A stretch of DNA of 64,000 bases from Burkholderiaceae bacterium (GTDB taxonomy: Bacteria > Patescibacteriota > Saccharimonadia > Saccharimonadales > AQU-01). Positions within the stretch are counted from its first letter, which is position 1. The number at the start of each line of letters is the position of its first letter. Below the pieces are notes generated by a model. That model ran no database searches, was not told the DNA's origin, and saw nothing but the letters and a program-made list of their open reading frames with translations. Where the stretch lies: NCBI GenBank assembly GCA_043788365.1, contig JAYVTZ010000013.1, positions 11,071 to 75,070 on the forward strand, written 5' to 3'. Of this stretch, positions 3,256 to 62,800 are shown piece by piece. The position numbers were made by a program, and so were the translations under genes.

Positions 3256-3399
3256 GTGGTATCTAGTAGTTAGTTTCTGGTTTTCTTGCATGGAAGAGAC
3301 TTGTTGACGCTGCCACCGAGTAGCTACTAGTTCCAGAGTCTTAATACTAGCTACTAGAAACGAGCGACGAGATACTAAAGACAGTGTATAATTAATCAG
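3256..3399 (+). repeat. CTAG-rich intergenic element, copy A (MITE-like)
   Basis: Starts 4 nt after the frr stop with GTATCTAGTAG (3259-3269). It ends with CTAGCTACTAGAAACGAGCGACGAGATACT (3347-3376). Related to copies at 23842, 27896 and 62669. Confidence 0.55.
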
Positions 3400-10872: not shown

Positions 10873-11616
10873 TTGTATTCAATGATTGAGGTTAACAAGC
10901 TTACAAAAGTCTACGGCAAAAAACAGAACAAATTTGTTGCTCTAAAAAATATTAATTTTAATATTCCAAAAGGCGCGACAGTTGCGATCATTGGTAAAAG
11001 TGGCTCGGGTAAATCGACACTGATGCATATTATGAGCGGGCTTGATCATCCTGATGAGGGCAGTGTGGTGATTGGTGGCCATACCTTACATAAACTCAAG
11101 GGCAAGGCGATGGACAATTTCCGCGCCAAGCAGATGGGTTTTATTTTTCAAGCTTTCTTTGTTGAGGGCAATCAAACTTGTTTCGAAAATGTCATGTTGC
11201 CGCTTGAAATTGCCAAGATTCCACGTGGTGAGAGGCGTAAGCGTGTCGAAACCGCCCTTAAAGCAGTAGAACTAGCGGATAAAATTGACGTTAAGGCTAA
11301 GAATTTGTCAGGTGGTCAGAAGCAGCGCCTTGCTATTGCTCGGGCAATCGTTAATAAGCCCAACCTAATTTTCGCCGATGAACCAACCGGTAACCTAGAC
11401 AGTACAACCGGCAATAAAATAATGGAGTTATTGTTTGGGCTTAACCGAACGCTTGGTAGTACGCTTTGCATCGTTACTCATGACCATGAGCTGGCTAGCA
11501 AATGCCAATACCAAATTAGGTTAAAAGACGGAGCGGTAGAATCAATTGTTGAGAGCGATCACCCACTGCTGGCAGCAAATATAAAGACTACTAAAGGGAC
11601 AAAAGGCAAGGCTTAA
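10873..11616 (+). CDS. ABC transporter ATP-binding protein (MacB/LolD-like)
   Basis: Walker A GKSGSGKST, signature LSGGQKQR, Walker B LIFADEPT. The likely true start is the ATG at 10882 (MIEVNKL), 8 nt after TATACT at 10868-10873. Confidence 0.9.
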   Translation: MYSMIEVNKLTKVYGKKQNKFVALKNINFNIPKGATVAIIGKSGSGKSTLMHIMSGLDHPDEGSVVIGGHTLHKLKGKAMDNFRAKQMGFIFQAFFVEGNQTCFENVMLPLEIAKIPRGERRKRVETALKAVELADKIDVKAKNLSGGQKQRLAIARAIVNKPNLIFADEPTGNLDSTTGNKIMELLFGLNRTLGSTLCIVTHDHELASKCQYQIRLKDGAVESIVESDHPLLAANIKTTKGTKGKA

Positions 11617-14535: not shown

Positions 14536-15288
14536 ATGTGGTTAAAGCGACTGGTTGGATTGACTATGATAATCACCTTAGTTGGTATGAATGCACTGGT
14601 TGTTTTTGGACTGCTCGCACCTCCGAAGAAAAAAGAGGTTTTCATTGAGCCAGCAGTTGTGGCTGTCGTTCCAGTACCGACAGTAACATTAGCGATAGAA
14701 CCAGCCGTCGTTCCGGCCCAAACTACCTCAGGTCTAAAATGGTCGACGACTGGTAATCCAACTGATTGTAAGGCGACGGGCGCTTGGTCTGGTGCCAAAA
14801 CACCATTTGGTTCGGAGAGTACTGGACGTCTAGCTACCCCAGGCAACTTTACCTATACACTGAATTGCACCAATGCCAGTGGTAGTGCTGTTGCAGCAGC
14901 GACAGTAACAGTTGGTAACGCCATTCCACCCAAGAAAAGTGTTGTTAGCTCGAGTACGGCTAATGCCGGCGGAGCAACCTATTGTGGTGGCAGGGCACCA
15001 TGCTACGGCAAAAAAGACATTGCCTCGCATTCATCACAAGGTAACTGTTGGGGTTGGAATGGTGATAGGGTCATAAACGTTGGTAGTTTTGATAGCGCCT
15101 ATCATCAGGCTAAGTCTGGTATTAGTAGTATTCAAATCGGTGGTGTCTGTGGCACCGACCTTGGGCCGTCACTCGGTGGTTCGGTGTCTGCCGGCGGCCA
15201 AACCCGTAATCATAATCCAACTTCCAAAGCTAACTTAGACAAAAATATGACGCCGTATTTTGTCGGTTATTTTGACGCCACTAAGTAA
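14536..15288 (+). CDS. membrane-anchored surface protein: one two-Cys Ig-like repeat plus a Cys-rich cytochrome-b5-like C-terminal domain
   Basis: N-terminal TM, then the repeat LKWSTTGNPTDCKATGAWSGAK...YTLNCTNASGS. The C-terminus reads YCGGRAPCYGKKDIASHSSQGNCWGWNGDRVINVGSF and is paralogous to the C-terminus of 16428..18929. Confidence 0.7.
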   Translation: MWLKRLVGLTMIITLVGMNALVVFGLLAPPKKKEVFIEPAVVAVVPVPTVTLAIEPAVVPAQTTSGLKWSTTGNPTDCKATGAWSGAKTPFGSESTGRLATPGNFTYTLNCTNASGSAVAAATVTVGNAIPPKKSVVSSSTANAGGATYCGGRAPCYGKKDIASHSSQGNCWGWNGDRVINVGSFDSAYHQAKSGISSIQIGGVCGTDLGPSLGGSVSAGGQTRNHNPTSKANLDKNMTPYFVGYFDATK

Positions 15289-15302
15289 TAAGAAAGAATA
15301 AT

Positions 15303-15845
15303 ATGATTGCCAAAAAATCACCGAGTAACAGCGTAAATTTAACCCGTCAGCAAGCAAAAAATCTGTTGGTTATTGTTGGTGGGATCTTGCTCCTGTCGGT
15401 TATATTACTTTTAATGGCATTCAGGGTCGAACACCGCGAGGTGAATAGACTAAGTGCAATACCAACAAAGTCAATTGAGCTAGGTAAACCGATTACGATG
15501 GGTGCCGTCGAGGTGACAATTGATAAGGTTGCTTATGGGACTGGTCAACCGCCATTTATCGCTCCTAAAGGTAAACGTTACGCTATTGTCAGCTTTAATA
15601 TAATGAATAGAACAGACGCGCCGATTCAAGTCTTGCCAGCTAATGACCTATATCTTAAGAATAGCGCCGGCGATGTTGCTTATATCAGCCCTTATTCATT
15701 GGAGCAACCGTTTCGTGCCGGTGAGTTATCACCTGGTGAGCGTCAAAAAGGCGACCTAAGCTTTCTAGTTAGTGACTCGGGCGACTATAAGCTTTATGTT
15801 GATGCTATTTGGAGTGGCGGCGTAATTACTTTCGCAACTAAGTAA
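15303..15845 (+). CDS. membrane-anchored DUF4352-like beta-sandwich protein
   Basis: N-terminal TM, then the pattern RYAIVSFNIMNRTDAPIQV...LKNSAGDVAY...LSPGERQKGDLSFLV, typical of DUF4352. Confidence 0.6.
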   Translation: MIAKKSPSNSVNLTRQQAKNLLVIVGGILLLSVILLLMAFRVEHREVNRLSAIPTKSIELGKPITMGAVEVTIDKVAYGTGQPPFIAPKGKRYAIVSFNIMNRTDAPIQVLPANDLYLKNSAGDVAYISPYSLEQPFRAGELSPGERQKGDLSFLVSDSGDYKLYVDAIWSGGVITFATK

Positions 15846-15918
15846 CGATGTGACTAAGACGGTTGTATAAGAGGGGTCGAGTCTTATATAATACGCTTAA
15901 GCTAAATGTGGAGAATTA

Positions 15919-16431
15919 ATGATTACGCTAGGCATTGGCATCAAGATACGACAAGCACTGGGTTCAATAATGATTGTTTTTGGACTAAGCCTTATCCTTA
16001 TTGGCGCAAACCAAACTTTAATTAGACATCAGGACGAGCTAGCTTCTAAGCAACTCATAAATCAGAATCAAGTTTTAGGTGCAACATATATTGCCAAAGA
16101 TTACTCAGTCTATGTTAATAAAGTCGTCTCTCATCCAACAGATATTGCTAATAGTGGGCGGCGTTATTCGGCAGATGTAACACTAGTTAACACCTCAAAC
16201 CTAGCCCTAGATTATTCACCTGGTCTACAGCTGAGTTTGGTAGATGGAACTGGGCAAATCTATGCACCGACTGCAAAATATCTGGCTGATGGTCAGACGC
16301 TAGGTGGTAGCCTTGCCCCAGGTCAAAACACGACATCGACTATCGACTTTGATTTGCCTCAGGCGTCTCAACCAACCGAACTACAGTTTCAAGAAGATTT
16401 AACCAGCAAAGTAACCAAAATCAAATTATGA
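15919..16431 (+). CDS. membrane-anchored DUF4352-like protein
   Basis: N-terminal TM, then YSADVTLVNTSNLALDYSP...LVDGTGQIY...LAPGQNTTSTIDFDLP. Confidence 0.55.
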   Translation: MITLGIGIKIRQALGSIMIVFGLSLILIGANQTLIRHQDELASKQLINQNQVLGATYIAKDYSVYVNKVVSHPTDIANSGRRYSADVTLVNTSNLALDYSPGLQLSLVDGTGQIYAPTAKYLADGQTLGGSLAPGQNTTSTIDFDLPQASQPTELQFQEDLTSKVTKIKL

Positions 16432-18929
16432 GCCTTGACCCGATAGTTTTTACTCTACCTACGCCACCTCCACCACCGGTCAAGCTGCAGCGCCCCAAAT
16501 TTATTCCTGACTCAACCAAGCAAACCAAGATAATCGCTTCAATATCGGCAATTGTAATTGCGCTTAGTATGATTAGTTTTGCACTATTTACAGCCCTTAC
16601 TAACAACCAGACTTTTAAACAAAGCCATGGCATTAAAACCGCTGTTGAAGAGGCCACGCCTGGCGCATCGCTTAGTTCGGACAAGAGTTCAGCAGCATTG
16701 CCTGGTGGTGGAGTTGCAGTAGGTACTGGCGGAACTTCTGGAGGTGTAAATAGCCCAGTCGTGACTCTAACTGCTGAACCAGCCTCGGTACTACTCGGTG
16801 GCACAACTCAAATTAAATGGAAGGTTACAAATAATCCAACAAGCTGTCTGGCAACTGAAGACTGGGCAGGCAATAAAAATGTTGCCGGCGGTAGTGAAAC
16901 CACAGCACCACTGACCAAAGCACAGACCTATATTTTTACACTTACCTGTAAGACTGCAACAGACACAGGCTACGCAACGGTTACTGTTGGTGTCATCGAA
17001 CAATCAGTCAACACGAGCCCAACAACTAAGCCGACCGTAACACTGGCGGCGACACCGTCGGGTGTTTATGTTGGTCAAAGCTCAATCCTAAGCTGGAGCG
17101 TATCCAATAATCCAACCTCATGCACCGCAAGTGGTGACTGGTCAGGTGCCAAGCCAACCGGCGGTTCGGCTGACACCGGTGTACTGAACACCGCTAGACA
17201 GTATAACTACACACTGACATGTTCTAATGGCGCCGGCAGTAACAGTTCGACTACACATGTCTCGGCCATTAATATCCCTCCGAATACGCCGATAGTTGGG
17301 CTATCTAGCAATCCTTCGGGCCCGGTAGCACCCGGTGCAACTGCGACTCTAACCTGGACTTTCCTGGGTGGTGCACCAACCTCGTGTACGGCCAGTGGCG
17401 ACTGGACGGGCGCCAAGAGTACGGCTGGTGGCTCGGCAGTTGTAGGCCCGATGAATACAATTCGTACCTATAGCTATACTTTGACATGCTCTAATGTCAG
17501 CGGTTCATCCTTTGACACGGCCTCAATTCTGGTGATTCCAAATCCACCAGCTATATCTCTAACGGTTAGCCCCAGTGCGATATTTGTCGGTAGCTCGGCG
17601 ACTATAAGCTGGTCGGCAACAAATAGCCCGACAACCTGCACAGCTAGCGGTGATTGGGCGGGCGCCAAGGCTGCCAGTGGTACGGCTTCGACCGGCTCGT
17701 TAGCCGTCGCCAGAACCTATTTGTATAGCTTGTCTTGTGCGAATAGCGGCGGTACTACCACTGTCAGTAATATTCCGCTGACAGTAACTTTGCCGCCGGC
17801 TCCGGTGGTGACTATAAACGCGAACCCTATTTCGACAACTGTCGGTAGTTCGTCGACGTTATCATGGTCGGCAACAAATAGCCCGACAACCTGCACAGCT
17901 AGCGGTGATTGGGCGGGCGCCAAGGCTGCCAGTGGTACGGCTTCGACCGGTGCGCTAACCCTTGCCAAGACATATACTTTTACTCTGACGTGTTCAAATG
18001 CTGGTGGCTCAGGAGTTGGGTCGACCAGTGTAACTGTTTCCGTTGGTGGTGGAGCGGTCATAGCACCAGTCGTGACTATCACCGTTAGCCCAGCCAGTAT
18101 CGGTACGGGTAGTTCAGCGACGATTAGTTGGTCGGCAACAAATAGTCCAACGACATGTACGGCTAGTGGCTCGTGGACTGGCGCGAAAGGGACGAGTGGT
18201 ACGACCAGTACTGGAGTAATGAACGCCGCCGGAACCTTCACATACACTCTAACTTGTTCAAACACCGCAGGTAGTGACGTTAAGTCGGCAGTTTTAACTG
18301 TTATTGCAATTCCAGTCGTCACGATTTCGGTCGCGCCGACCTCAATAATTGCCGGCGCAAGTGCCAATATCTCCTGGAGCGTTACCAATACGCCGACAAC
18401 TTGTACGGCTGGCGGTAGCTGGACGGGCTCCAAGGCCGCCGCCGGTGGTCCGGTAACTACTGGTGTTATGTTAACTGCTGGCTCGTTTATTTACTCGCTA
18501 AGCTGTACCAACTCGGGCGGCACCGGTTCTGGCTCGGCGACCCTAACCGTCACCAGTGCCTCACCAGTTTTCTGTACTGGACTGGTGCCATGTTATGGCA
18601 TTAGCGAGATGGCGACTCGTGCCACTGTCGGTAATTGTTGGGGTTGGAACGATCCAGCCAACGGCACCGTGCCATGGGTGATTAATGTTACCAACTTTAG
18701 ACCAAGCCATCTCGGCGGCACGTCGCTTGGCTCACTTGAAACCGTCGGTTCGACCTGTAATAAGAATATGTTTGCTATTTTAGCTGGTACGGCGGCGATA
18801 CCGGGCTATAAGGATGCGAGCGGCGCCACGACCCATGCGCACGTTGCTGCCACCAAGAATAATACCGCCAGCTCAGGCCTTAAATCAGCCAGCTTCCATG
18901 TTGGCTATTATGATCCGACTAAACCATAG
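16428..18929 (+). CDS. large surface protein: seven tandem two-Cys Ig-like repeats plus a cytochrome-b5-like C-terminal domain
   Basis: A proline-rich N-terminus and TM anchor are followed by 7 repeats of about 86 aa (consensus ...SWSxTNxPTxCTASGDWxGAK...G...TYxYTLTCSNxxGS...). The last 120 aa read FCTGLVPCYG...GNCWGWN...VINVTNFRPSHLGG. Confidence 0.8.
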   Translation: MSLDPIVFTLPTPPPPPVKLQRPKFIPDSTKQTKIIASISAIVIALSMISFALFTALTNNQTFKQSHGIKTAVEEATPGASLSSDKSSAALPGGGVAVGTGGTSGGVNSPVVTLTAEPASVLLGGTTQIKWKVTNNPTSCLATEDWAGNKNVAGGSETTAPLTKAQTYIFTLTCKTATDTGYATVTVGVIEQSVNTSPTTKPTVTLAATPSGVYVGQSSILSWSVSNNPTSCTASGDWSGAKPTGGSADTGVLNTARQYNYTLTCSNGAGSNSSTTHVSAINIPPNTPIVGLSSNPSGPVAPGATATLTWTFLGGAPTSCTASGDWTGAKSTAGGSAVVGPMNTIRTYSYTLTCSNVSGSSFDTASILVIPNPPAISLTVSPSAIFVGSSATISWSATNSPTTCTASGDWAGAKAASGTASTGSLAVARTYLYSLSCANSGGTTTVSNIPLTVTLPPAPVVTINANPISTTVGSSSTLSWSATNSPTTCTASGDWAGAKAASGTASTGALTLAKTYTFTLTCSNAGGSGVGSTSVTVSVGGGAVIAPVVTITVSPASIGTGSSATISWSATNSPTTCTASGSWTGAKGTSGTTSTGVMNAAGTFTYTLTCSNTAGSDVKSAVLTVIAIPVVTISVAPTSIIAGASANISWSVTNTPTTCTAGGSWTGSKAAAGGPVTTGVMLTAGSFIYSLSCTNSGGTGSGSATLTVTSASPVFCTGLVPCYGISEMATRATVGNCWGWNDPANGTVPWVINVTNFRPSHLGGTSLGSLETVGSTCNKNMFAILAGTAAIPGYKDASGATTHAHVAATKNNTASSGLKSASFHVGYYDPTKP
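16758..18566 (+). repeat. intragenic tandem array of seven ~255-260-bp coding repeats
   Basis: Repeat boundaries were read from the protein. It includes an 86-bp perfect direct repeat at 17610-17695 and 17865-17950. Confidence 0.85.
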
Positions 18930-23841: not shown

Positions 23842-23993
23842 TTTCTCGTTTCTTGTAACTAGTATTTGAATGTCCATTTTAAAGAAAAGCATATTCTACT
23901 ACATAAAATACCAGAAACTAGCTCCTAGCTACTAGATACGAATATCTGAATAGGTTACAATATATAGAACTGCTAAGAGAGGTTACTATTCTT
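23842..23993 (+). repeat. CTAG-rich intergenic element, copy B
   Basis: TAGTTTCTCGTTTCTTG resembles TAGTTTCTGGTTTTCTTG of copy A. It contains CCAGAAACTAGCTCCTAGCTACTAGATACGAATATCT (23911-23947). Confidence 0.55.
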
Positions 23994-27895: not shown

Positions 27896-28039
27896 TGAGC
27901 AGTATCTAGTAGCAGCGGCTAGTGTCTTGTATAACCGCCCTCGACTTTACTAGCTGCTTTTTATATGAGCGACTAGGCACTAGCTACCGTATACTGCCTT
28001 ATACGAGCAACTAGAAACTAGATACGATATACTAATACC
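27896..28039 (+). repeat. CTAG-rich intergenic element, copy C
   Basis: GTATCTAGTAG at 27902-27912 (7 nt after the stop) and CAACTAGAAACTAGATACGATATACT at 28009-28033. The two ends are inverted copies of each other. Confidence 0.6.
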
Positions 28040-29125
28040 GTGGAAGACCTCGATAAATCCCTACATGCTCTAGACAAAGCCGTCCAAGACGCTGCCAAGC
28101 GTCTCAAGCTTGATACCCTTGAATCAGAGCTGTTAGGCTTAAACGAAGACAGCGAGGCCAGTGACTTCTGGGCCGATAATTTGCGCGCCCAAACTGTCGT
28201 CAAGCGTCAATCGCAGCTTCAAACTCGCATCGAGCCGTGGCAAAAGCTTTTGAGCGACCTGGCCGATGCCAAAGAGTTAGCCGAGCTAAAAGACGACACT
28301 ATGACCGACGAGCTAGCCACCCAGCTAGACGACCTACAAAAGTGTTTTGACGGCTTAAAAGACGAATTAAAACTCGCCGGCCCATATGACGACCACGACG
28401 TTGTGCTCAGTATTTTTGCTGGCGCTGGCGGCACCGACGCCCAAGACTGGGCCCAGATGTTACTGCGCATGTATGTTCGTTACTGCGAAAAATCAGGCTT
28501 CGAAATCAAGACAATTGACGAGTCCGGTGGCGACGAAGCCGGTATAAAATCTGTACTCTTAGAAATTAGCGGTAATTTCGCTTATGGCAAGCTAAAAGGT
28601 GAGCACGGCGTCCATCGTTTGGTGCGATTAAGCCCGTTTAATGCCGATAGCCTGCGTCAAACCAGCTTCGCCAAAGTCGACGTCATTCCCAAGGTCGCCG
28701 GCCAGGCAGAGGTGTTAATCGACGACAAAGACCTCAAAATCGACGTTTATCGTAGTGGCGGCAAGGGCGGCCAGTCGGTCAACACGACCGATTCGGCCGT
28801 GCGCATCACACACCTGCCAACCAACATCGTCGTCGCCATTCAAAACGAGCGTTCCCAGCTCCAAAATCGCGAAACTGCCATGACAATATTGCGCTCAAAA
28901 CTTGCTCAATTAATGCTCGAGCAACACAAGGAGCAGTTAAGTGAACTAAAGGGTCCAAATGAGCAGGCCAGCTGGGGCAACCAAATCCGCTCTTACGTTT
29001 TGCACCCTTACAAGATGGTCAAGGACTTGCGCACCCTCTACGAAACCTCCGACACAGAAGGTGTCCTAGACGGCAGCCTCGAACCCTTCATCGAAGCCTA
29101 TTTAGAATATTCTCTTGGCAAGTAA
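28040..29125 (+). CDS. prfB: peptide chain release factor 2 (single uninterrupted frame, GTG start)
   Basis: RLSPFNA (SPF), GGKGGQSVN (GGQ), WGNQIRSYVLHPY. Confidence 0.9.
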   Translation: MEDLDKSLHALDKAVQDAAKRLKLDTLESELLGLNEDSEASDFWADNLRAQTVVKRQSQLQTRIEPWQKLLSDLADAKELAELKDDTMTDELATQLDDLQKCFDGLKDELKLAGPYDDHDVVLSIFAGAGGTDAQDWAQMLLRMYVRYCEKSGFEIKTIDESGGDEAGIKSVLLEISGNFAYGKLKGEHGVHRLVRLSPFNADSLRQTSFAKVDVIPKVAGQAEVLIDDKDLKIDVYRSGGKGGQSVNTTDSAVRITHLPTNIVVAIQNERSQLQNRETAMTILRSKLAQLMLEQHKEQLSELKGPNEQASWGNQIRSYVLHPYKMVKDLRTLYETSDTEGVLDGSLEPFIEAYLEYSLGK

Positions 29126-29127
29126 TT

Positions 29128-29190
29128 TTGCCCCACTTTTGTCTCGGCAAAAAGTTACCACCAAGCCCCCTAAAATGCTATGGATGCATA
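29128..29190 (+). repeat. mini copy of the structured repeat (both ends, no core)
   Basis: TTGCCCCACTTTTGTCTCGGCAAAAAG plus CCAAGCCCCCTAAAATGCTATGGATGC match the two ends of copy 38080-38294. Confidence 0.6.
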
Positions 29191-29320
29191 CGTATCAGTG
29201 AGTGTAATTTGGATTTTTGAGCTGTTACTTTAGGGACATAGTATCGCATATTAGTATCTTATAAGGTAATCATAAGAGAAGACATATATTTAAAAATCCA
29301 ACCGACCATTGATATCTACT

Positions 29321-30397
29321 TTAGTCTGTAAAGACCTTATCACGATGGTATTGTAAATAATTTTTTCTTTCTTGGTTTAGTAAAAATTCATCTATTCTAT
29401 ATACGCTTAGATGATCTTTAAGTCTTTTCGATAAGTTTCTTGTTTGAGAAATTACTATGGTGCCATCATCAGAGAAGCTAATATATCCTTGGTCAAAAAG
29501 CTGATCTATGTTTCTACTTAATAACAGACCATTATTCTCATCAAAGGCTTCTTCCTCAGTTGAATGAGAATAGGGTTTTATGTGGCTAGCTATTAAGACA
29601 GGGTAGTCTAACTTTTCAACCATACAAACAACAGCATCGTAATATTTGTTTGACTCTGATATTAGCTGATTTTTATAAAGCCTCTGTAAGTAACTGTCTC
29701 TTAGTCCACTTACGGATTTGCCATCTGTTAGTATGGACTTTGATCTTGAGTCGCTACTGAAATATACGGCATCTTGCCTTACAGCAAGATCATCCAGTTG
29801 ATCTAAGAGGTTCCACAAATATCTTATTTGATTGTACTTTCTTTCAACAAATCCAATTGATCGTATATATGTGACTCCGGAATCTATCATTTCTCTTGTG
29901 GCAAAATCTTGTTTTGCTAACGAAACATTAATAGTCATTAGCGCGACAGCTTCTTCTTTTGTCAGTCTGCCGTCAGCAGCCGTTAGAGTGTTAACAAAAA
30001 AATTTATTTCGTTAACGTCTGAATCATTAGTAAATGATCGTCCAAAACTAGAGTTCGAATATACTATCTTAGAGAATATAGTACCTTTTTCCGATGGATC
30101 TGACGTAGATAGAAAATCCTTAGTATGTTTATGGTATCCTGCTAAGGCAGAATTCACGAAGCCTAGCTTGATAAATTGATTGATAGCTTTACGCGTTGAA
30201 ATAAGTTGAATAGGGTAATTCTTAACTAGTTCATGTTGTAGTTTATCATATGCATTACCAGCATTTGAAGATATTTCTTGTCTATTATCGTCAATGAAAT
30301 TAACAATTATTCCTAGACTACCGTTAAACCCATCTCCTGTTATGTCTGAGTAAGCTAGAGTAAGTTTCCAGTATGATTCGTACGTTTGGTCTGTCAT
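29321..30397 (-). CDS. restriction endonuclease candidate with a C-terminal HNH (HNH_2-like) nuclease domain
   Basis: The C-terminus reads VLIASHIKPYSHS...ENNGLLLSRNIDQLFDQGYISF. It is the last gene of the operon, 2 nt after the adenine methyltransferase. Confidence 0.6.
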   Translation of the reverse strand: MTDQTYESYWKLTLAYSDITGDGFNGSLGIIVNFIDDNRQEISSNAGNAYDKLQHELVKNYPIQLISTRKAINQFIKLGFVNSALAGYHKHTKDFLSTSDPSEKGTIFSKIVYSNSSFGRSFTNDSDVNEINFFVNTLTAADGRLTKEEAVALMTINVSLAKQDFATREMIDSGVTYIRSIGFVERKYNQIRYLWNLLDQLDDLAVRQDAVYFSSDSRSKSILTDGKSVSGLRDSYLQRLYKNQLISESNKYYDAVVCMVEKLDYPVLIASHIKPYSHSTEEEAFDENNGLLLSRNIDQLFDQGYISFSDDGTIVISQTRNLSKRLKDHLSVYRIDEFLLNQERKNYLQYHRDKVFTD

Positions 30398-30399
30398 AA

Positions 30400-31431
30400 C
30401 TAAGATCTCTCGGCGATAAACAAATATTCAGAATTCTTGTGCTTGTTTAATTTCCCTGTAATTTTATATGTGTGTTTCACTTCTACTACTTTAACACTTT
30501 TAGCGTGTTTACTTATAATGTCTATCAAAACATCCTTAGATGGAAAAGAAGACGTATTGTAACTAAGCATCCAATATTTGAAATTCCCAAGACTTGAAAA
30601 AAGTTTTTCGAATAGCTCGATGGAAGCGTCTTTATTGATGAAGTTGTTATTAAAGGGAGGAATAACCTCCCCTTGAATATAGTTATCCAAAAAGCTATAG
30701 AACTCATAATAGTTATTCATAGTGCCGGTATAGGGTGGATCAATATACACAAGGTCTGCAGACAATTCTTTTATTGCATCGAATGCATCCATATTTACTG
30801 AAACGTTTTCTTGACCATTATCAAAAACAGCCTTATTATACTGCTGAATATTAGATTTGAAGTGGTGTTCGAACGATTCATTATGATATGCCCTGCGTCT
30901 TTTATACTTAGCGTAGCTATACTCCTCGTCTCTTAATTGCTCTACCTTTTCCCATTTAATATTGAACCTAGAATAGGGCATTTTTCTAATCAACGACCTT
31001 CGCATTAATATTAGGGCAAGCGACTTTTTATACTCAGAACTCAAGTGTCGAATGTTTTCTCTGTATAGGTCGAGCTGTTCGCATTCATTGGGATAGAATA
31101 ATTTCCCAGCGTAATTACTATACACAAAGCCCCTAAATGGCTTACCTTTAAATATTAAATCTACGTCACTATCGGTAAGAGTTTCTCTATCGTTTTCAAT
31201 CAGCGCCCTACCTATCTCGTAGTTAATCCTCATGATATCGTTAGATATAACTGACATACCGCGCCTCTTATAGGCGTATGCAACTGAGGCTCCACCCGAG
31301 AATAAGTCAAGTACGGTATTAACCCCTGAAGGGGTGTTGTCGCATATCCAGTCAGTAATTTTTTCTTTATTTCCGATGAAGTTTACTGTCGGGTACTTGA
31401 TTCTACTTGCAGGATGATTTTTACTTATCAT
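30400..31431 (-). CDS. DNA N6-adenine methyltransferase (Dam/D12-class-like)
   Basis: DLFSGGASV (motif I) and VYIDPPYTG (motif IV, DPPY). Confidence 0.8.
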   Translation of the reverse strand: MISKNHPASRIKYPTVNFIGNKEKITDWICDNTPSGVNTVLDLFSGGASVAYAYKRRGMSVISNDIMRINYEIGRALIENDRETLTDSDVDLIFKGKPFRGFVYSNYAGKLFYPNECEQLDLYRENIRHLSSEYKKSLALILMRRSLIRKMPYSRFNIKWEKVEQLRDEEYSYAKYKRRRAYHNESFEHHFKSNIQQYNKAVFDNGQENVSVNMDAFDAIKELSADLVYIDPPYTGTMNNYYEFYSFLDNYIQGEVIPPFNNNFINKDASIELFEKLFSSLGNFKYWMLSYNTSSFPSKDVLIDIISKHAKSVKVVEVKHTYKITGKLNKHKNSEYLFIAERS

Positions 31432-32425
31432 GAACTGAACCGGTGCTCATCATATGTCTAATATTTTTCGCTAAATGATAACCAAGGAGCGGTGGGACTG
31501 AGTTACCTACTTGTTGCTGCTGGGAGATTACCGAGCCTTCAAAAATAAAATTATCTGGATACGTTTGTAAGCGAGCAAGTTCTCTGACTGTGAGCGCTCG
31601 ATTATCTCGGTAGTGAAAAACTTTACGCATGTCCCCGGTAATGCAAACTGAGGGCTCTGCACTCGAGTACCGTATGTACTTTCTTATATCGCCAGAAGTT
31701 GGTCTAATTGCTTTAGGAATATCATTGCGAGTACCTCCATCTGTGACAAAACTCATTTTATGTAGCATTTGGTCCGTATGATTCATGGCAACATGATTAG
31801 GAATGCATGAATTTTCTCCAGATTTCAATCTGGGCAAGTCGTCGATTGCATCTTTTACAGAGACAGGTTTTGAACCTAATGGTTTAGGGAATATTATATT
31901 GACATCAAGTTTTGTTCCAATAAATATAGTTCTTCTGCGTTGTTGAGGCACACCATAATCAGCGGTATTTATGACTTTAACTTTTACGTTATAACCGATT
32001 TTTTTAAATGTTTCTAATATCTCGGCGCGTGTTTTCCCCTGGTTATGCGTATATAGTCTAGCTACATTTTCCATTATGAAGAAGTCTGGACTTACGGCAT
32101 CAACTACTCTAGCAAACTCCTTAAACAAATAGTTTCTGGGGTCGTCCACAAACTTTCGACCAATACTCCCAGCCATGCTGAACCCCTGGCATGGTGGACC
32201 GCCAACAACCACATCAATCTTTTGTTTCTTAATCAATGTGCGAATCTCTTCAGTGGTTAATTCAGTTATATTCTTCTTGATGAGTGTGTGAGATGGAAAA
32301 TTACGTGAGTATGTCTTATTGAACGTCTGATCAAAATCCACCGAAAAAACATTAGCAAAGGCTGCTTGCTCGAAACCGAGAGTTAACCCTCCCGAACCAC
32401 TAAATAGATCTATAAATGTTGGCAT
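31421..32425 (-). CDS. DNA cytosine-5 methyltransferase
   Basis: DLFSGSGG, GGPPCQGFS, ENV, QRRRT and GNSVPP are the canonical m5C motifs I, IV, VI, VIII and X. Confidence 0.9.
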   Translation of the reverse strand: MPTFIDLFSGSGGLTLGFEQAAFANVFSVDFDQTFNKTYSRNFPSHTLIKKNITELTTEEIRTLIKKQKIDVVVGGPPCQGFSMAGSIGRKFVDDPRNYLFKEFARVVDAVSPDFFIMENVARLYTHNQGKTRAEILETFKKIGYNVKVKVINTADYGVPQQRRRTIFIGTKLDVNIIFPKPLGSKPVSVKDAIDDLPRLKSGENSCIPNHVAMNHTDQMLHKMSFVTDGGTRNDIPKAIRPTSGDIRKYIRYSSAEPSVCITGDMRKVFHYRDNRALTVRELARLQTYPDNFIFEGSVISQQQQVGNSVPPLLGYHLAKNIRHMMSTGSVHDK

Positions 32426-32656
32426 AACTTACTCTGATTTTAGCACAGATTATGATGGTCAGGCACGTTGTTATGAAGAATTCATTTAATTGTAATGTTC
32501 GAAATAACCACACGCATTTGAGCGAAAAAATAGAGTGCCTTACTTTATTTACATCTGGTGTTGAAGCTGTAAAATACCATATGCCACAACAGTAATATTA
32601 GACATAAGTATTCAGAATTATGCTATATATTAATTAATCACAAGAGCTATCATAAA

Positions 32657-33097
32657 ATGATGAATATTTACTTAGACATTGATGGGGTGTTGGTGGCAAA
32701 TGATTATAATGCCGCTAATTATTCTGCGGAGTTTATTGAGTACGTATTGACCAAGTTCCCAGATACAACCTACTGACTGACCACTCACTGCCAAGGGGAT
32801 GCTAGTCGACCGATTAAGGATATTGGCCACTTGTTTGATGCGAAAACTATTGATTATATGAAGATGATTAAGCCAACAACGTGGCTAGAATCACCAAATA
32901 AAACATCGGCCATAGATTTTAGTCAGCCCTTTTTATGGTTTGATGATGATTCTTTTTACGGCGAGAGGCAAGAGTTAATCAAGAACAATGTACTAGATAA
33001 TTGGATAGAAGTTGACCTGCGCAAAGATCCAGACCAACTACTAAAATTCATTACCAGTTTCCCGATTGCTTCTGAAATGGTGCAAGAAGGCAATTAA
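32657..33097 (+). pseudogene. HAD-like hydrolase gene interrupted by one in-frame TGA
   Basis: The frame from ATG 32657 reads MMNIYLDIDGVLVAN...PDTTY, then TGA (32774-32776), then LTTHCQGD... and continues into track ORF 32831..33097. DIDGVL is HAD motif I. Confidence 0.55.
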
Positions 33098-33105
33098 AAA
33101 AAATA

Positions 33106-33343
33106 GCCCGCTTCCAGCGGGCATACATGGTCTTTGGTGGGGCTTGGCTGCTTCCTGATACGGACTCGTCAAACTGACAACTATTGGAGCGGACTCCGCC
33201 ATCAAACTCTATTATGAATCTTTGCTGGCCGACTGAAAGGAGTCGTCTGCTCTTGTTGTCAGGCTTGACTGGAGAACAGTACCCAAGAAGTAGACACCGC
33301 CCCTCGGCTTTTGCGCTATCTTTTGCCGAAACAAAAGTGTCAG
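33106..33343 (-). repeat. structured repeat, copy 1 (candidate ~240-nt ncRNA or mobile-element end)
   Basis: GC hairpin GCCCGC-TTCCA-GCGGGC (33106-33122), nested helices, and a terminal hairpin CTTTTG-CCGAAA-CAAAAG. On the minus strand, TGaATAATT lies just outside the outer end and the GC hairpin is followed by T8. Confidence 0.6.
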
Positions 33344-33387
33344 AAATTATTCATTTTTCTTTGCTAAATTAGTGCTAAAATATGACT

Positions 33388-33651
33388 ATGAACGACTACC
33401 AAATAGATGATCTCAAACAATTTATTCTAGCCACTTCATCACAAACTGAAGCGCGCATAATGCAAAACCTCGGCGGTGAAATTAGCCAATTTAGAACTGA
33501 ATTAAAAGGTGAAATAAACGAATTAAGAACCGAAATGAGGGGCGGGTTTGAAGGTGTAGCCGTGGCTTTTGAAGAAACCCACCGGATTATTGAAGAAAAT
33601 AAAGTCGAAACTGACGTACGCTTAACTAGACTCGAAAGTCACTTTATTTAG
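33388..33651 (+). CDS. hypothetical small coiled-coil protein
   Basis: Heptad-like EISQFRTELKGEINELRTEM. I chose the second ATG (33388) because TGcTAAAAT ends at 33381, 6 nt upstream. Confidence 0.45.
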   Translation: MNDYQIDDLKQFILATSSQTEARIMQNLGGEISQFRTELKGEINELRTEMRGGFEGVAVAFEETHRIIEENKVETDVRLTRLESHFI

Positions 33652-33733
33652 CCCGGGGCTGAAAAGTCTTAATGTAACTTTTGCGTGCGCAGGTGGAAGT
33701 AGCATAAGAGATTTGCTGGTATAATAGAAACAC

Positions 33734-34417
33734 ATGATTCTATTAGACAGGGTAACCAAAACATATAGCCGCGAAACAGGCGCAGCTCTCGAGCGCATCA
33801 GCCTACACGTTGAGCCTAAAGAGTTCGTTATCATTATTGGCTCGAGTGGCGCTGGTAAGTCGACACTCCTAAAACTTTTGACCAGAGAAGAGAAACCGAC
33901 CAGCGGCAAAATCGTTGTTGGTGGTATCGACTACAGTAAGCTAAAAGACAAAGACATCCCATTGCTGCGCCGTAAAATTGGCACGGTATTTCAGGACTTT
34001 AAGTTACTGCCGGGCAAGAACGTGTTTGAAAACGTCGCTTTTGCACTGGAAATTGTCGGCATGAGCAATAAAGAGATTAATCACACTGTACCAAGGGTCC
34101 TTGATATTGTCGGCCTAAAAGGCAAAGAAAAACGGATGCCAATGGAACTGTCTGGTGGTGAGCGTCAACGTGTCGCCATCGCCCGGGCAATCGTTCGGCA
34201 GCCGAAAATTTTGATCGCCGACGAGCCAACTGGCAACCTCGACCCCAAGCACGCTTGGGACGTTATTAAGGTTCTAGAAAAAATTAATCGTTTCGGTACA
34301 ACCGTGATATTGACCACACACAACCAAGAAATCGTTAACAAACTAAAGCGCCGCGTGATTACAATTAGCGATGGCAAAATTGTTAGCGACAGAGCCAACG
34401 CGGAGTACCACGCATGA
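33734..34417 (+). CDS. ftsE: cell-division ABC ATPase FtsE
   Basis: GSSGAGKST, LSGGERQR, ILIADEPTGNLD. Followed by ftsX with an ATGA overlap. Confidence 0.9.
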   Translation: MILLDRVTKTYSRETGAALERISLHVEPKEFVIIIGSSGAGKSTLLKLLTREEKPTSGKIVVGGIDYSKLKDKDIPLLRRKIGTVFQDFKLLPGKNVFENVAFALEIVGMSNKEINHTVPRVLDIVGLKGKEKRMPMELSGGERQRVAIARAIVRQPKILIADEPTGNLDPKHAWDVIKVLEKINRFGTTVILTTHNQEIVNKLKRRVITISDGKIVSDRANAEYHA

Positions 34418-38048: not shown

Positions 38049-38079
38049 TTTTCTTTAGTCCGCTAAAGCGGACTTTAAT

Positions 38080-38294
38080 TTGCCACTTTTGTCTCGGCAA
38101 AAGATGGCGCAAAACCGAGGGGCGGTGTCGACAACTCGATATAGCTTCCAAACAAAAAGACAACACACCCTCCGGAACTCATCCTAACGGATTTCAAACA
38201 GTCCTCGGGAATTAGTTTGTTGTCTTTTTGATTGAATCTATTTCGGGTCGCCGTCAAGCCCCCATAAGACCATGGATGCCCGCTGGAGGCGGGC
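38080..38294 (+). repeat. structured repeat, copy 2 (same ends, different core)
   Basis: TTGCCACTTTTGTCTCGGCAAAAG...GGGGCGGTGTC...CAAAAAGACAACA/TGTTGTCTTTTTG...CAAGCCCCC...GCCCGC-TGGAG-GCGGGC. Confidence 0.6.
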
Positions 38295-38375
38295 GATTAC
38301 ATAACAGCTAAAACTACCAATTCACATAATCCCCATCTGTTTGGGGACGAACCCCAACCCACATAATAAATATGA

Positions 38376-38597
38376 TTAATGATTGGCTGCGGACTTGTAT
38401 AACACTCTGATCACGTACCTAACGCCTTTGTATAGTTGTAAGTAGAAAAGTACGGGTAGCGAATACGTTAGTAGGCCTAAGATAAGAGAGAACCGATTAT
38501 GTCTGTCTGGTAATATATTCCGCTCATCAAGCATGCGATACGACTCTTTAAAGCTCTCATAAGTCTTAGCTGGTAATTCTTTATAATTAATCGACAT
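38376..38597 (-). CDS. hypothetical 73-aa single-TM protein (cassette cargo)
   Basis: Hydrophobic stretch FSLILGLLTYSLPVLFYLQL. On the minus strand, TGgTATCAT ends 6 nt before the ATG. Confidence 0.45.
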   Translation of the reverse strand: MSINYKELPAKTYESFKESYRMLDERNILPDRHNRFSLILGLLTYSLPVLFYLQLYKGVRYVIRVLYKSAANH

Positions 38598-38710
38598 AAG
38601 TGTATGATACCATCTAAATAATAAAACTAGCCCATGACTCCTGGTCTGCTATCCCACCCTACGCACTTGTTGCCAGGGGATATTCACCTATATTTTTAAT
38701 TTATAAAATT

Positions 38711-38968
38711 GCCCGCCTCCAGCGGGCATCCTTGGTATTAGAGGGGGCTTGGCTGCTTCCTGATACATGTCTCGTCAAACTGACAACTTCTGCAGTGGAC
38801 TCAGCCATCAAACTCTATTTTGAAACTTTGATGGCCGACTGTAAGGAGTCGTCCACTGCGTTGTCAGGCTTGACAGGAGACTGTATCAAGAAGCAGACAC
38901 CGCCCCGAGTTTTTGCGCCATCTTTTGGCGGTCCAAAAGTGGCAAAGAGTAGTCTGCTTTAGCGGACT
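38711..38968 (-). repeat. structured repeat, copy 3
   Basis: By eye, roughly four-fifths identical to copy 1, with compensatory changes in helices. GC hairpin at 38711-38727. Confidence 0.6.
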
Positions 38969-60720: not shown

Positions 60721-61980
60721 ATGGAATCCAAAAAACAAAGAAAAACAATCTTCCCGAAAGACTTCCTTTGGGGTGCAAGCACGGCTAGCCATCAAGTCGA
60801 AGGCGGCAATTATAATCAGTGGACTGTTTGGGAATTAGAGAATGCTAAACGACTGGCGAGTACTGCACAAAAAAGACTTGGCTGGATGCCGTCGTGGGAC
60901 TTAGTCGAGAAAAGAGCCACCAGCCCGAGTAATTACGTGTCAGGTGAGGGTATTGATCATTATCATCGCTATGAGCATGATTTTGATATAGCCGAGAAGC
61001 TGAACATTAATTCATTACGCTTCGGTATTGAATGGTCGCGCCTAGAGCCAGAAATGGGTAAATGGGATAACGAACAAATCATCCATTACAAAAAGTATAT
61101 TAAAGCCATGACTACCAAGGGTATGACACCAGTGCTTAATCTTTGGCACTGGACGCTACCAACTTGGTTTAGCGATAATGGCGGCTTCAAGAACCGTGCT
61201 AATTTGGTCTACTGGCAGGGCTTTGTCCAAAAAGTTGCCGATGAACTATTGACTGACATCGACTACGTGATTACGCTGAACGAGCCTAATGTTTATGCTA
61301 GCTTTGGCTATCTCAACGGCGAGTGGCCACCTCAGGAAAAGAATCTCATCAGCATGGCCCGGGTCTATTGGAATTTAACCCGCGCCCATAAGCAAGCCTA
61401 TGCCATCGTCAAAGCTAAAAATCCAAAAATCCAAATTGGTATCGCTGCCCAACTAGCTAATATTCAAGCCAAGCGGCCACACAATATGATTGATTCAGTC
61501 GTGACTAAAATAATGCGGTATGTATGGAACTGGTGGTTTTTGCATCGTATTAACAATCAGCAAGACTTCGTCGGCTTTAACTATTATTTTACCGATTATT
61601 ACAAAGGCTTTAAACGGGCTAATCCGGCCGTCCCGGTCAATGATCTCGGCTGGTACATGGAACCAGAAGGAATTTATCCTTTGTTGCTAAGAGTTTGGTC
61701 CAGATTTAAAAAACCGATTATGATTGCCGAGAATGGCACGGCTGACGAAGGCGACGAATACAGGCAGTGGTGGATCGGCGAAACCATCGTTGCCATGGAG
61801 CGGGCGATTAGTGAAGGTGTCGATGTTATTGGCTATTTCCACTGGAGTCTACTTGATAATTTTGAGTGGGCCTATGGTTGGTGGCCAAAATTTGGTCTAA
61901 TTGCAGTTGATAGAAATACAATGAAGCGACAAGTTCGTAAAAGTGCGCTTTGGTATGCCGAGCAGATAATTAAAAGATAA
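60721..61980 (+). CDS. GH1 family beta-glucosidase
   Basis: FLWGASTASHQVEGG, TLNEPN (acid/base Glu), IAENG (nucleophile Glu). ATG 60721 lies 8 nt after TACAAT (60707-60712). Confidence 0.85.
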   Translation: MESKKQRKTIFPKDFLWGASTASHQVEGGNYNQWTVWELENAKRLASTAQKRLGWMPSWDLVEKRATSPSNYVSGEGIDHYHRYEHDFDIAEKLNINSLRFGIEWSRLEPEMGKWDNEQIIHYKKYIKAMTTKGMTPVLNLWHWTLPTWFSDNGGFKNRANLVYWQGFVQKVADELLTDIDYVITLNEPNVYASFGYLNGEWPPQEKNLISMARVYWNLTRAHKQAYAIVKAKNPKIQIGIAAQLANIQAKRPHNMIDSVVTKIMRYVWNWWFLHRINNQQDFVGFNYYFTDYYKGFKRANPAVPVNDLGWYMEPEGIYPLLLRVWSRFKKPIMIAENGTADEGDEYRQWWIGETIVAMERAISEGVDVIGYFHWSLLDNFEWAYGWWPKFGLIAVDRNTMKRQVRKSALWYAEQIIKR

Positions 61981-62668: not shown

Positions 62669-62800
62669 TTTCGGTGAAGGTCCAAGTTCATTAACAAATT
62701 AGTAGCTCGTAGTTAGAAACTCGTAGCTAGTATATAAGCAGTTGTCAAAAGTAGTGACTCGTTAGACGAGTAACTAGTAGCTAGATACGAAATACTATCA
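62669..62800 (+). repeat. CTAG-rich intergenic element, copy D
   Basis: AGTAGCTCGTAGTTAGAAACTCGTAGCTAG and TAACTAGTAGCTAGATACGAAATACT (62771-62796). Confidence 0.5.

Follow-up and report, generated by a model that had tools for sequence, protein, structure and literature searches.

Within a 64,000-nt stretch of contig JAYVTZ010000013.1 (assembly GCA_043788365.1, forward strand, positions 11,071 to 75,070; the whole stretch is called the window below), a low-GC segment between prfB and ftsE carries a type II restriction-modification (RM) operon enclosed by two inverted copies of a structured repeat. Tail-to-tail pairs of this repeat enclose variable accessory cargo, mostly defence genes, at several sites in several Saccharimonadales genomes. 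From this layout, the changing cargo and the mosaics seen in the repeat copies we infer that the resident repeats may act as portable homology arms, between which cassettes would be exchanged by homologous recombination and not by transposition. We give this reading a probability of about one half.

FtsX and neighbouring genes place the window in the Saccharimonadales (Saccharibacteria/TM7). The closest homologues are 83-86% identical and come from metagenome-assembled genomes and from lake and groundwater metagenomes, some of them named Candidatus Saccharimonadales; exact-protein look-ups with FtsE and FtsX of the window gave no match. The window is matched at 100% by L070 and at 99.98% by L075, both short Logan contigs, indicating that the same strain has been assembled independently. 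An earlier note on this DNA had drawn attention to the segment, had reported the same layout at 38058-38968, and had proposed a cassette-capturing or non-autonomous mobile system rather than chance. The second pair is confirmed, and the recurrence of such pairs around variable accessory and defence genes at several sites and in several genomes bears out that the arrangement goes beyond chance. As to the proposed system, the presence of different cargo between the same arms agrees with cassette exchange, while a transposon-like non-autonomous unit finds no support in termini, target-site duplication or any transposase among the annotated ORFs.

Structure and distribution of the repeat

Each arm of the pairs measures about 240-270 nt and, read toward its terminator, comprises a small hairpin with a U-run (hairpin A), hairpin B, a long hairpin and an intrinsic terminator. 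Hairpin A and its U-rich run lie no more than 10 nt upstream of most copies; the sequence of this hairpin varies by site with a CGC...GCG core being kept, and its flanks appear by eye to covary. Hairpin B is the best-conserved sequence of the whole repeat. It is a palindrome, GCCACUUUUG-N6-CAAAAGUGGC, with arms of about 11 nt and a 6-nt spacer, and the CG in its loop is invariant. An A-rich linker leads to an irregular hairpin of ~165 nt with the conserved base GGGGCGGUG ... CCAAGCCCC, which is followed by the motif GACCAUGGAUG and by the GC hairpin and U-run of the terminator. Every full arm closes with a terminator and most open with a terminator-like hairpin. The long hairpin carries an extra apical insertion of ~50-60 nt in some copies (L016 5866-6166, L051 11333-11624 and L055 4219-4497); that of L016 is itself a hairpin, indicating that the apex tolerates insertions.

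Base pairing was analysed in an alignment of 33 distinct full copies (A4). Standard pairs occupy 96.4% of the cells, and in 20 of the 45 pairs both partners have changed. Covariation scores 0.335, compared to 0.151 in shuffled alignments, none of which reached the observed value (0/500), and to at most 0.089 with the pairing slid. By these compensatory changes, which exceed both the shuffled and the slid controls, the repeat is a structured RNA or folded single-strand element. On the terminator-bearing strand G.U combinations outnumber A.C combinations by 114 to 30, and this excess points to selection on that strand, either as RNA or as single-stranded DNA.

A profile search with a threshold of at least 50 bits identifies 52 copies, distributed over 29 loci from freshwater Saccharimonadales; a covariance model (CM) of the repeat, R1, gives E-values computed over 184 kb. 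Two pattern scans place the repeat, among genomes, only in Saccharibacteria, and additionally in freshwater metagenome contigs. About 30 of the 36 genome matches of the looser first pattern belong to unrelated phyla and were discarded as chance, and one match of a 3' pattern in viral contigs is likewise assumed to be chance. Between species the arms are 85-88% identical, compared to 70-78% for neighbouring core genes. Blastn searches of 50,697 phage and 72,556 plasmid records returned no match to the arms, and an origin from either source was rejected on these grounds. Rfam 15 returns no match in the window at gathering thresholds, with chance-level hits only over copies 1-3 (E 0.4-8), which stay far under the cut-offs. 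Type-A arms, including the copy with positions 33134-33152 of the window, carry GGAAGCAGCCAAG, which we take to be the conserved 3' strand of domain IV of signal recognition particle (SRP) RNA; type-B arms do not conserve this sequence and no SRP model of Rfam scores, so that the resemblance is probably due to chance. In the literature on repeats, non-coding RNAs and defence hot spots of Saccharibacteria we found no description of the repeat, and both the family and its organisation into paired landing pads appear to be undescribed.

Paired arms and exchange of their cargo

Three full copies are located in the window by nhmmer and the CM, at 33098-33346 (minus strand), 38079-38300 (plus) and 38702-38948 (minus). 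Beyond the four known positions no solo hairpin-B site was found in the window. Copy 1 belongs to the RM segment and is described with it, and copies 2 and 3 form the second pair. Copy 2, the left arm, is of type B and spans 38057-38300 on the plus strand, with hairpin A at 38057-38074, hairpin B at 38082-38108, the long hairpin at 38119-38262 and the terminator at 38277-38295. The right arm, copy 3, is of type A1 and spans 38702-38968 on the minus strand (fold z -11.5), with the terminator at 38710-38728, the long hairpin at 38744-38906, hairpin B at 38917-38943 and hairpin A at 38951-38968. Both were also recovered by the terminator scan. The 400-bp spacer between them (38301-38701) contains a 73-aa open reading frame (ORF) at 38376-38597 on the minus strand. 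The initial 50 nt of the spacer recur, at 80% identity, where the cargo of L061 starts beside an arm at another site.

Across all loci there are 23 neighbour relations between copies, of which 16 are tail-to-tail, 6 tandem and 1 head-to-head. The sole head-to-head relation joins copies 1 and 2 in the window across the core genes from ftsE to ctpA, and the tandem relations have a single gene between copies in each case. Nine of the 16 tail-to-tail pairs abut as empty pairs, located at ctpA-pyrG, infC-comM and a third site. The remaining seven enclose 0.4-9.4 kb and answer the question raised in the earlier note, i.e. whether the repeats flank other cargo: they hold accessory genes, mostly of defence. 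L056 encodes an MmeI-type IIG RM enzyme, a DEAD helicase and a T5orf172 protein, L058/L062 an SRA-HNH (type IV-like) nuclease, a C5 methyltransferase (MTase) and a PbeA-like PLD-SNF2 protein, and L069 an HNH protein, MazG and an AbiO/Nhi-like Schlafen helicase. Further cargo comprises an HKD-Snf2 candidate defence protein (L050), Fic/DOC (L060), a C39-like peptidase (L054) and a P-loop kinase-like ORF (L002), and in the tandem arrays a heliorhodopsin and a DUF6624 protein.

The inverted arms could be the long terminal inverted repeats (TIRs) of a non-autonomous transposon, akin to a MITE, a transposable element of the miniature inverted-repeat class, or to a mobile insertion cassette (MIC), with arms and cargo moved by a transposase acting in trans. 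The orientation of the arms fits this, as do the multi-copy nature of the family and its dispersal over at least 8 kinds of site. Occupancy also differs among relatives, L001 for instance having no repeat at ctpA-pyrG, and a HAD-like gene together with its arm is found in two chromosomal contexts (see below). Several properties of the pairs speak against it. In 9 of 11 pairs the sequences outward of hairpin B are unrelated between the arms; the inverted repeat is extended only in the second pair of the window and in L002, and no target-site duplication is visible. The two arms of one pair are usually of different internal types, which would also avoid an unstable perfect palindrome. Arms occupy the same syntenic sites (ctpA-pyrG, infC-comM) in different species, and the presence of pairs at shared sites despite a core-gene identity of only 70-78% indicates vertical inheritance. 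Copies are also found in tandem and alone, and no transposase was detected among the annotated ORFs, i.e. those of the RM segment and those annotated in the repeat-bearing loci, to which all recombinase and transposase negatives refer. Movement of arms and cargo as a transposon is thus very unlikely.

Comparison of closely related loci shows differing cargo between the same arms. In L056, L058/L062, L069 and L050 flanks and arms are 97% identical and the cargo is unrelated, and homology between these strains restarts exactly at the inner (terminator) end of the arm or at hairpin B. On the infC side of infC-comM, empty pairs have terminator type T2, while filled pairs have T1 together with the cargo. 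The arms themselves are mosaic. At one site hairpin B is 96-100% identical across genomes and the long-hairpin module only 56-62%, the modules being of different types. A reciprocal swap distinguishes L037 (4298-4777) from L045 (1425-1909): within one and the same empty pair the long-hairpin modules have changed arms, hairpin B and the terminators are unmoved, and the switch points coincide with the hairpin bases. In tandem arrays the half-arm that flanks a cassette repeats the following full arm at 99-100% identity, which is the signature of a single-crossover insertion. The arm mosaics argue for homologous recombination rather than for a dedicated capture enzyme.

These data also bear on a purely passive role, in which the arms would be structured 3'-UTR, terminator or small-RNA elements that do not promote exchange, and foreign genes would pile up between inward-facing terminators, where insertions are harmless in a very compact genome. 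The terminator that closes each arm and the terminator-like hairpin that opens most of them fit such a safe harbour, as does the location of arms at syntenic intergenic sites. Moreover, the arms are conserved above the protein-coding genes (85-88% versus 70-78%), and the structural covariation implies a function that is independent of the cargo. On the other hand, different cargos begin at the same points beside the terminators, and the inner parts of the arms change along with the cargo, as seen for T2 in empty and T1 in filled pairs at infC-comM. The same cargo-end sequence is found beside arms at different sites, and the arms themselves are mosaic. We regard the passive role as unlikely.

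In the favoured reading the arms are maintained for the structure that they form, either in RNA or in single-stranded DNA, and their similarity across many sites and genomes would provide homology on both sides of whatever a pair encloses. Arm-cargo-arm DNA that is taken up, probably by natural transformation, could then take the place of whatever lies within a resident pair through homologous recombination; Saccharibacteria are naturally competent (PMC10633639, PMC10187176). Recombination between inverted arms would only invert the cargo, while direct arms can delete it, and this may explain why filled pairs are enriched for the convergent layout. With a terminator-like hairpin at its entry and a terminator at its exit, an arm would block transcription from the flanking gene before it reaches the cargo.

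A number of observations weigh against exchange by homologous recombination. A recombination event has nowhere been directly observed. Where arms of different types agree exactly, at the bases of the long hairpin, the runs measure only about 10-18 nt; this is a poor RecA substrate, and yet the module swaps fall exactly there. Several truncated copies break within the CG-containing loop of hairpin B, which a site-specific enzyme would explain equally well. The left arm of the RM segment is merely a remnant, and an 89-aa ORF that is part of the extra DNA (33382-33651) lies outside the arm pair. Finally, no conserved promoter was found at the arms, some of which begin 5 nt past a stop codon. Of the two signals that would mark an independent small-RNA gene, a promoter of its own and a terminator, the terminator alone was detected.

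Some of these points would fit site-specific recombination, with hairpin B as the att- or dif-like core for an integrase or Xer-type recombinase encoded elsewhere. The geometry of hairpin B, with palindromic arms and a 6-nt spacer, is right for a Xer/dif site (28 bp, bound by XerC/XerD), although this resemblance is only a lead. That hairpin B with its invariant CG is the most conserved part of the repeat agrees with this, as do the solo hairpin after prfB in L001 and L002, where the RM segment is absent, and the short identity at the swap points. Truncations lie exactly in the spacer, e.g. at L058 4560-4576 and in the half-hairpin prefix before GTTAC-type copies. In addition, a 94-aa protein with a Zn-ribbon and an FtsK-gamma domain is encoded beside the right arm in L056 (9763-10047), L062 (7603-7887) and L050 (12266-12547); the gene lies directly upstream of the HAD-like gene at the rnc-rpsP site, and the window has no counterpart. 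FtsK-gamma activates XerD. The HAD-like gene is also found in a region resembling an integrative and conjugative element (ICE) with a large serine recombinase. However, no recombinase was detected in the RM segment or among the annotated ORFs of repeat-bearing loci, and the mostly inverted sites would give inversion and not excision or integration. Cargo breakpoints between strains fall mainly at the inner terminator ends and not at hairpin B, hairpin B is presumably unlike the known dif cores, and the ICE-like loci L076-L078 lack it. Overall, a site-specific recombinase acting at hairpin B or at the hairpin bases appears improbable.

We give similarly little weight to the idea that the arm pairs constitute a dedicated cassette-exchange platform of Saccharibacteria, integron-like without an integron integrase, in which a putative host factor recognises the hairpins. 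The hairpins would fold as single-stranded DNA during transformation, or as RNA, and would be cut or recombined at their bases. Defence cassettes as well as long-hairpin modules would then move between pads, within and between genomes.

The segment between prfB and ftsE

Within the favoured framework of resident homology arms, the segment between prfB and ftsE is to be read as a type II RM cassette gained by horizontal transfer, accompanied by a HAD-like gene in decay and lying inside a tail-to-tail repeat pair. The earlier note had described it as a low-GC island with a three-gene minus-strand RM operon and a broken HAD-like gene, lacking integrase, transposase and tRNA and bracketed by inverted copies whose hairpin ends face outwards. 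This description holds in nearly all respects; the label HAD is tentative, and the left copy is degenerate. In 400-nt windows the GC content is 0.31-0.42 over 29.0-33.4 kb, compared to 0.47-0.53 in prfB and upstream. The mean over 29191-33097 is 0.364, and that of the whole window is 0.445. No ORF of the island matches an integrase or transposase family, and the tRNA scan detected none there.

The core genes on both sides are prfB (peptide chain release factor 2; 28040-29125, plus strand; Pfam PCRF and RF-1) and ftsE (33734-34417, plus strand; Pfam ABC_tran), which are syntenic in L001, L002 and L006. A small GC hairpin across the prfB stop codon (29117-29132, plus strand), found in the terminator-like scan, is the counterpart of hairpin A. 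It is followed by the left arm, a mini copy at 29123-29219 (plus strand) in which a deletion of the long hairpin and the terminator has joined hairpin B (29135-29153) to the 3' tail (29161-29187). R1 aligns over its full length, skipping 150 positions of the model (14.9 bits, E 0.003), and nhmmer places model positions 4-31 and 178-210 on adjacent sequence. The mini copy is a genuine but decayed member of the family. The right arm, copy 1, is a full copy of type A1 at 33098-33346 on the minus strand (nhmmer 176 bits, CM 168.8 bits, fold z -3.7), with the terminator at 33106-33122, the long hairpin at 33139-33303 and hairpin B at 33318-33338. The two arms are thus inverted with their 5' hairpins outward at both ends.

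The cargo contains three RM genes that overlap or abut on the minus strand and form one operon. The first gene encodes a C5-cytosine DNA MTase (31421-32425; Pfam PF00145, E 1e-76; also PADLOC), followed by a D12-class N6-adenine DNA MTase (30400-31431; Pfam PF02086; PADLOC MTase_II, E 1.6e-139) and a type II restriction endonuclease (29321-30397; HNH_2, Pfam PF13391; PADLOC REase_II, E 5.7e-91). The operon shows the arrangement that defines a type II RM system, an endonuclease gene beside MTase genes of cognate type. The best non-self homologue of the HNH_2 endonuclease is 57% identical and homologues are found in many phyla; the C5-D12-HNH_2 unit also occurs in the unrelated contigs L071-L074. 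The low identity, the wide family and the unit in unrelated contigs indicate that the operon is a travelling RM cassette. In L071-L074 the operon has no repeat arms, which rules out that the arms travel with it. In itself the RM island is ordinary.

A HAD-like gene of 145 aa follows on the plus strand (32660-33097). An in-frame TGA (32774-32776) replaces Trp39, which is invariant in 36 homologues, and is confirmed in the independent assembly L075, so that the gene is probably a recent pseudogene. The family has an invariant D6-I-D8-G-V (DIDGV, motif I) and W93-F-D-D96 (WFDD). No Pfam, NCBIfam or PDB sequence match was obtained for the protein. Its AlphaFold model (pLDDT 90.6) weakly matches HAD phosphatases of the SCP1/CTD and YrbI types (E 0.02-0.1, TM-score about 0.5), and the tentative HAD assignment derives from the DIDGV motif and this predicted fold. 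The gene and the adjoining part of copy 1 are 83-85% identical at the nucleotide level to a block in L056/L062, which there adjoins rpsP and not ftsE and whose neighbouring core genes are only 70-78% identical. Members of the family also occur in another Saccharibacteria genome, within the ICE-like region (L077 1-20438, L078 1-11645). This region contains type IV secretion system genes (TraG-like, TraC-like, PrgI and a TrbC pilin), a CHAP protein, ThsB_TIR and an FtsK/SpoIIIE-like protein, with the large serine recombinase in L078; repeat arms are absent from the L077/L078 region.

The adjacency of prfB and ftsE without the island, proposed in the earlier note as a check, is observed in relatives: the gap is 51 nt in L001 (86% FtsX identity) and 129 nt in L002 (83%). 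In none of the relatives compared do RM genes stand at this place free of the repeats, and the family is not confined to single copies unrelated to accessory DNA. Empty pairs exist elsewhere, and traces of the repeat are present in the short spacers; hairpin B follows directly after the prfB stop in both L001 and L002, and L002 in addition contains a degenerate minus-sense copy that the CM detects as a weak match (11.5 bits, E 0.04). In the window a degenerate remnant of this post-prfB hairpin is seen by eye, without computed alignment, at 33676-33704 (plus strand), just upstream of the ftsE promoter. Taken together, the spacer hairpins, the degenerate copy and the remnant suggest that the repeat is probably an old resident of the prfB-ftsE site, and the syntenic arms in different species together with the L002 copy that the arms probably predate the RM cassette here. 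In L006 (84% FtsX identity) a 183-aa ORF sits between prfB and ftsE; it was considered as the ancestral HAD gene of the site and rejected, as it is related neither to the HAD-like gene nor to any other sequence of the window.

With respect to these relatives the extra DNA extends to about 33.70 kb, i.e. past copy 1. It includes the 89-aa ORF on the plus strand, which has a GC content of 0.39 and no family match. The earlier note had asked whether this ORF directly follows prfB where the island is missing; it is absent from all relatives examined. An extended -10-like sequence, TGCTAAAAT, lies immediately 5' of its start. A target-site duplication, for which the earlier note had suggested looking, is not present: no direct repeat links 29120-29135 with 33338-33360, and the other arm pairs have none either.

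Three further features of the window were noted. An unrelated repeat of ~36 nt, TTATACGAGCAACTAGAAACTAGATACGATATACTA-like and ACTAG-rich, occurs at 3342-3377, 23906-23941, 27961-27996, 27999-28034 and 62762-62797 and inverted at 62699-62733; its two tandem copies at 27961-27996 and 27999-28034 lie directly upstream of the prfB start. ARAGORN predicts a 96-nt tRNA at 61761-61856 with a four-base anticodon (ggag) and of undetermined identity, which could contain an intron or be otherwise unusual. At 14758-18434 eight to nine tandem units of ~255-264 nt (families D1/D2) with a conserved CxxxxxDW-like motif at the DNA level lie in a coding region, which probably encodes a repeat-domain surface protein.

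Comparison with known systems and implications

The closest parallels to cassette exchange between resident arms are found in Neisseria. The minimal mobile elements (MMEs) are defined as different whole-gene cassettes between conserved flanks, incorporated by homologous recombination (definition quoted in PMC3082526). The arm pairs resemble them in having differing cassettes, often RM, between the same flanks in a naturally competent host, and behave in this way at rnc-rpsP, infC-comM and ctpA-pyrG. Different cassettes between the same conserved flanks are found in L056, L058/L062, L069 and L050. Incorporation by homologous recombination in the flanks would agree with the arm mosaics and the swapped modules; the stretches of exact identity between arms are short. 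In contrast, the flanks of MMEs are single-copy core genes, while here the flank is a multi-copy structured repeat whose homology is portable across sites and species.

Correia elements are about 100-150 bp long, with defined TIRs and a TA duplication. The arms differ from them in their length of about 240-270 nt, in three or four hairpins with compensatory substitutions, in ending in their own terminator and in forming tail-to-tail pairs around cargo. Correia repeat-enclosed elements are co-transcribed with adjacent genes and influence termination as well as processing by RNase III (PMC2649163). The arms are similar to these elements, to repetitive extragenic palindromes and bacterial interspersed mosaic elements (REP/BIME) and to neisserial intergenic mosaic elements (NIME) as dispersed intergenic repeats with inverted-repeat structure.

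MICs and cargo MITEs likewise carry passenger genes without a transposase between inverted repeats. Unlike in these, defined termini and a target-site duplication were sought here and not found, and we know of no cognate insertion sequence for the repeat. Small gene modules bounded by short palindromic sites are also known from pdif modules of Acinetobacter plasmids and from integron cassettes; pdif sites bracket a module as inverted copies, and attC functions when folded as a single strand. Unlike in integrons, the arms are not present once per cassette in direct order but are predominantly inverted with two per cargo block, and no integron integrase family was found among the island ORFs or the scanned cargo ORFs. 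Unlike pdif sites, hairpin B is not known to match dif consensus sequences, and the sites are chromosomal and belong to a bacterium of the candidate phyla radiation (CPR).

Saccharibacteria and other CPR bacteria have genomes of about 1 Mb in which non-coding DNA is very scarce, and the acquisition and turnover of their phage-defence genes are poorly understood. The covariance model R1 would provide a simple sequence handle for variable defence loci in metagenomic CPR contigs, and the repeat is a candidate for a new structured RNA or DNA element without a counterpart in Rfam. In naturally competent Saccharibacteria the arms may offer ready-made homology arms and neutral landing pads for genetics. 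If a dedicated enzyme should indeed act on the hairpins, the arm pairs would represent a new gene-capture system.

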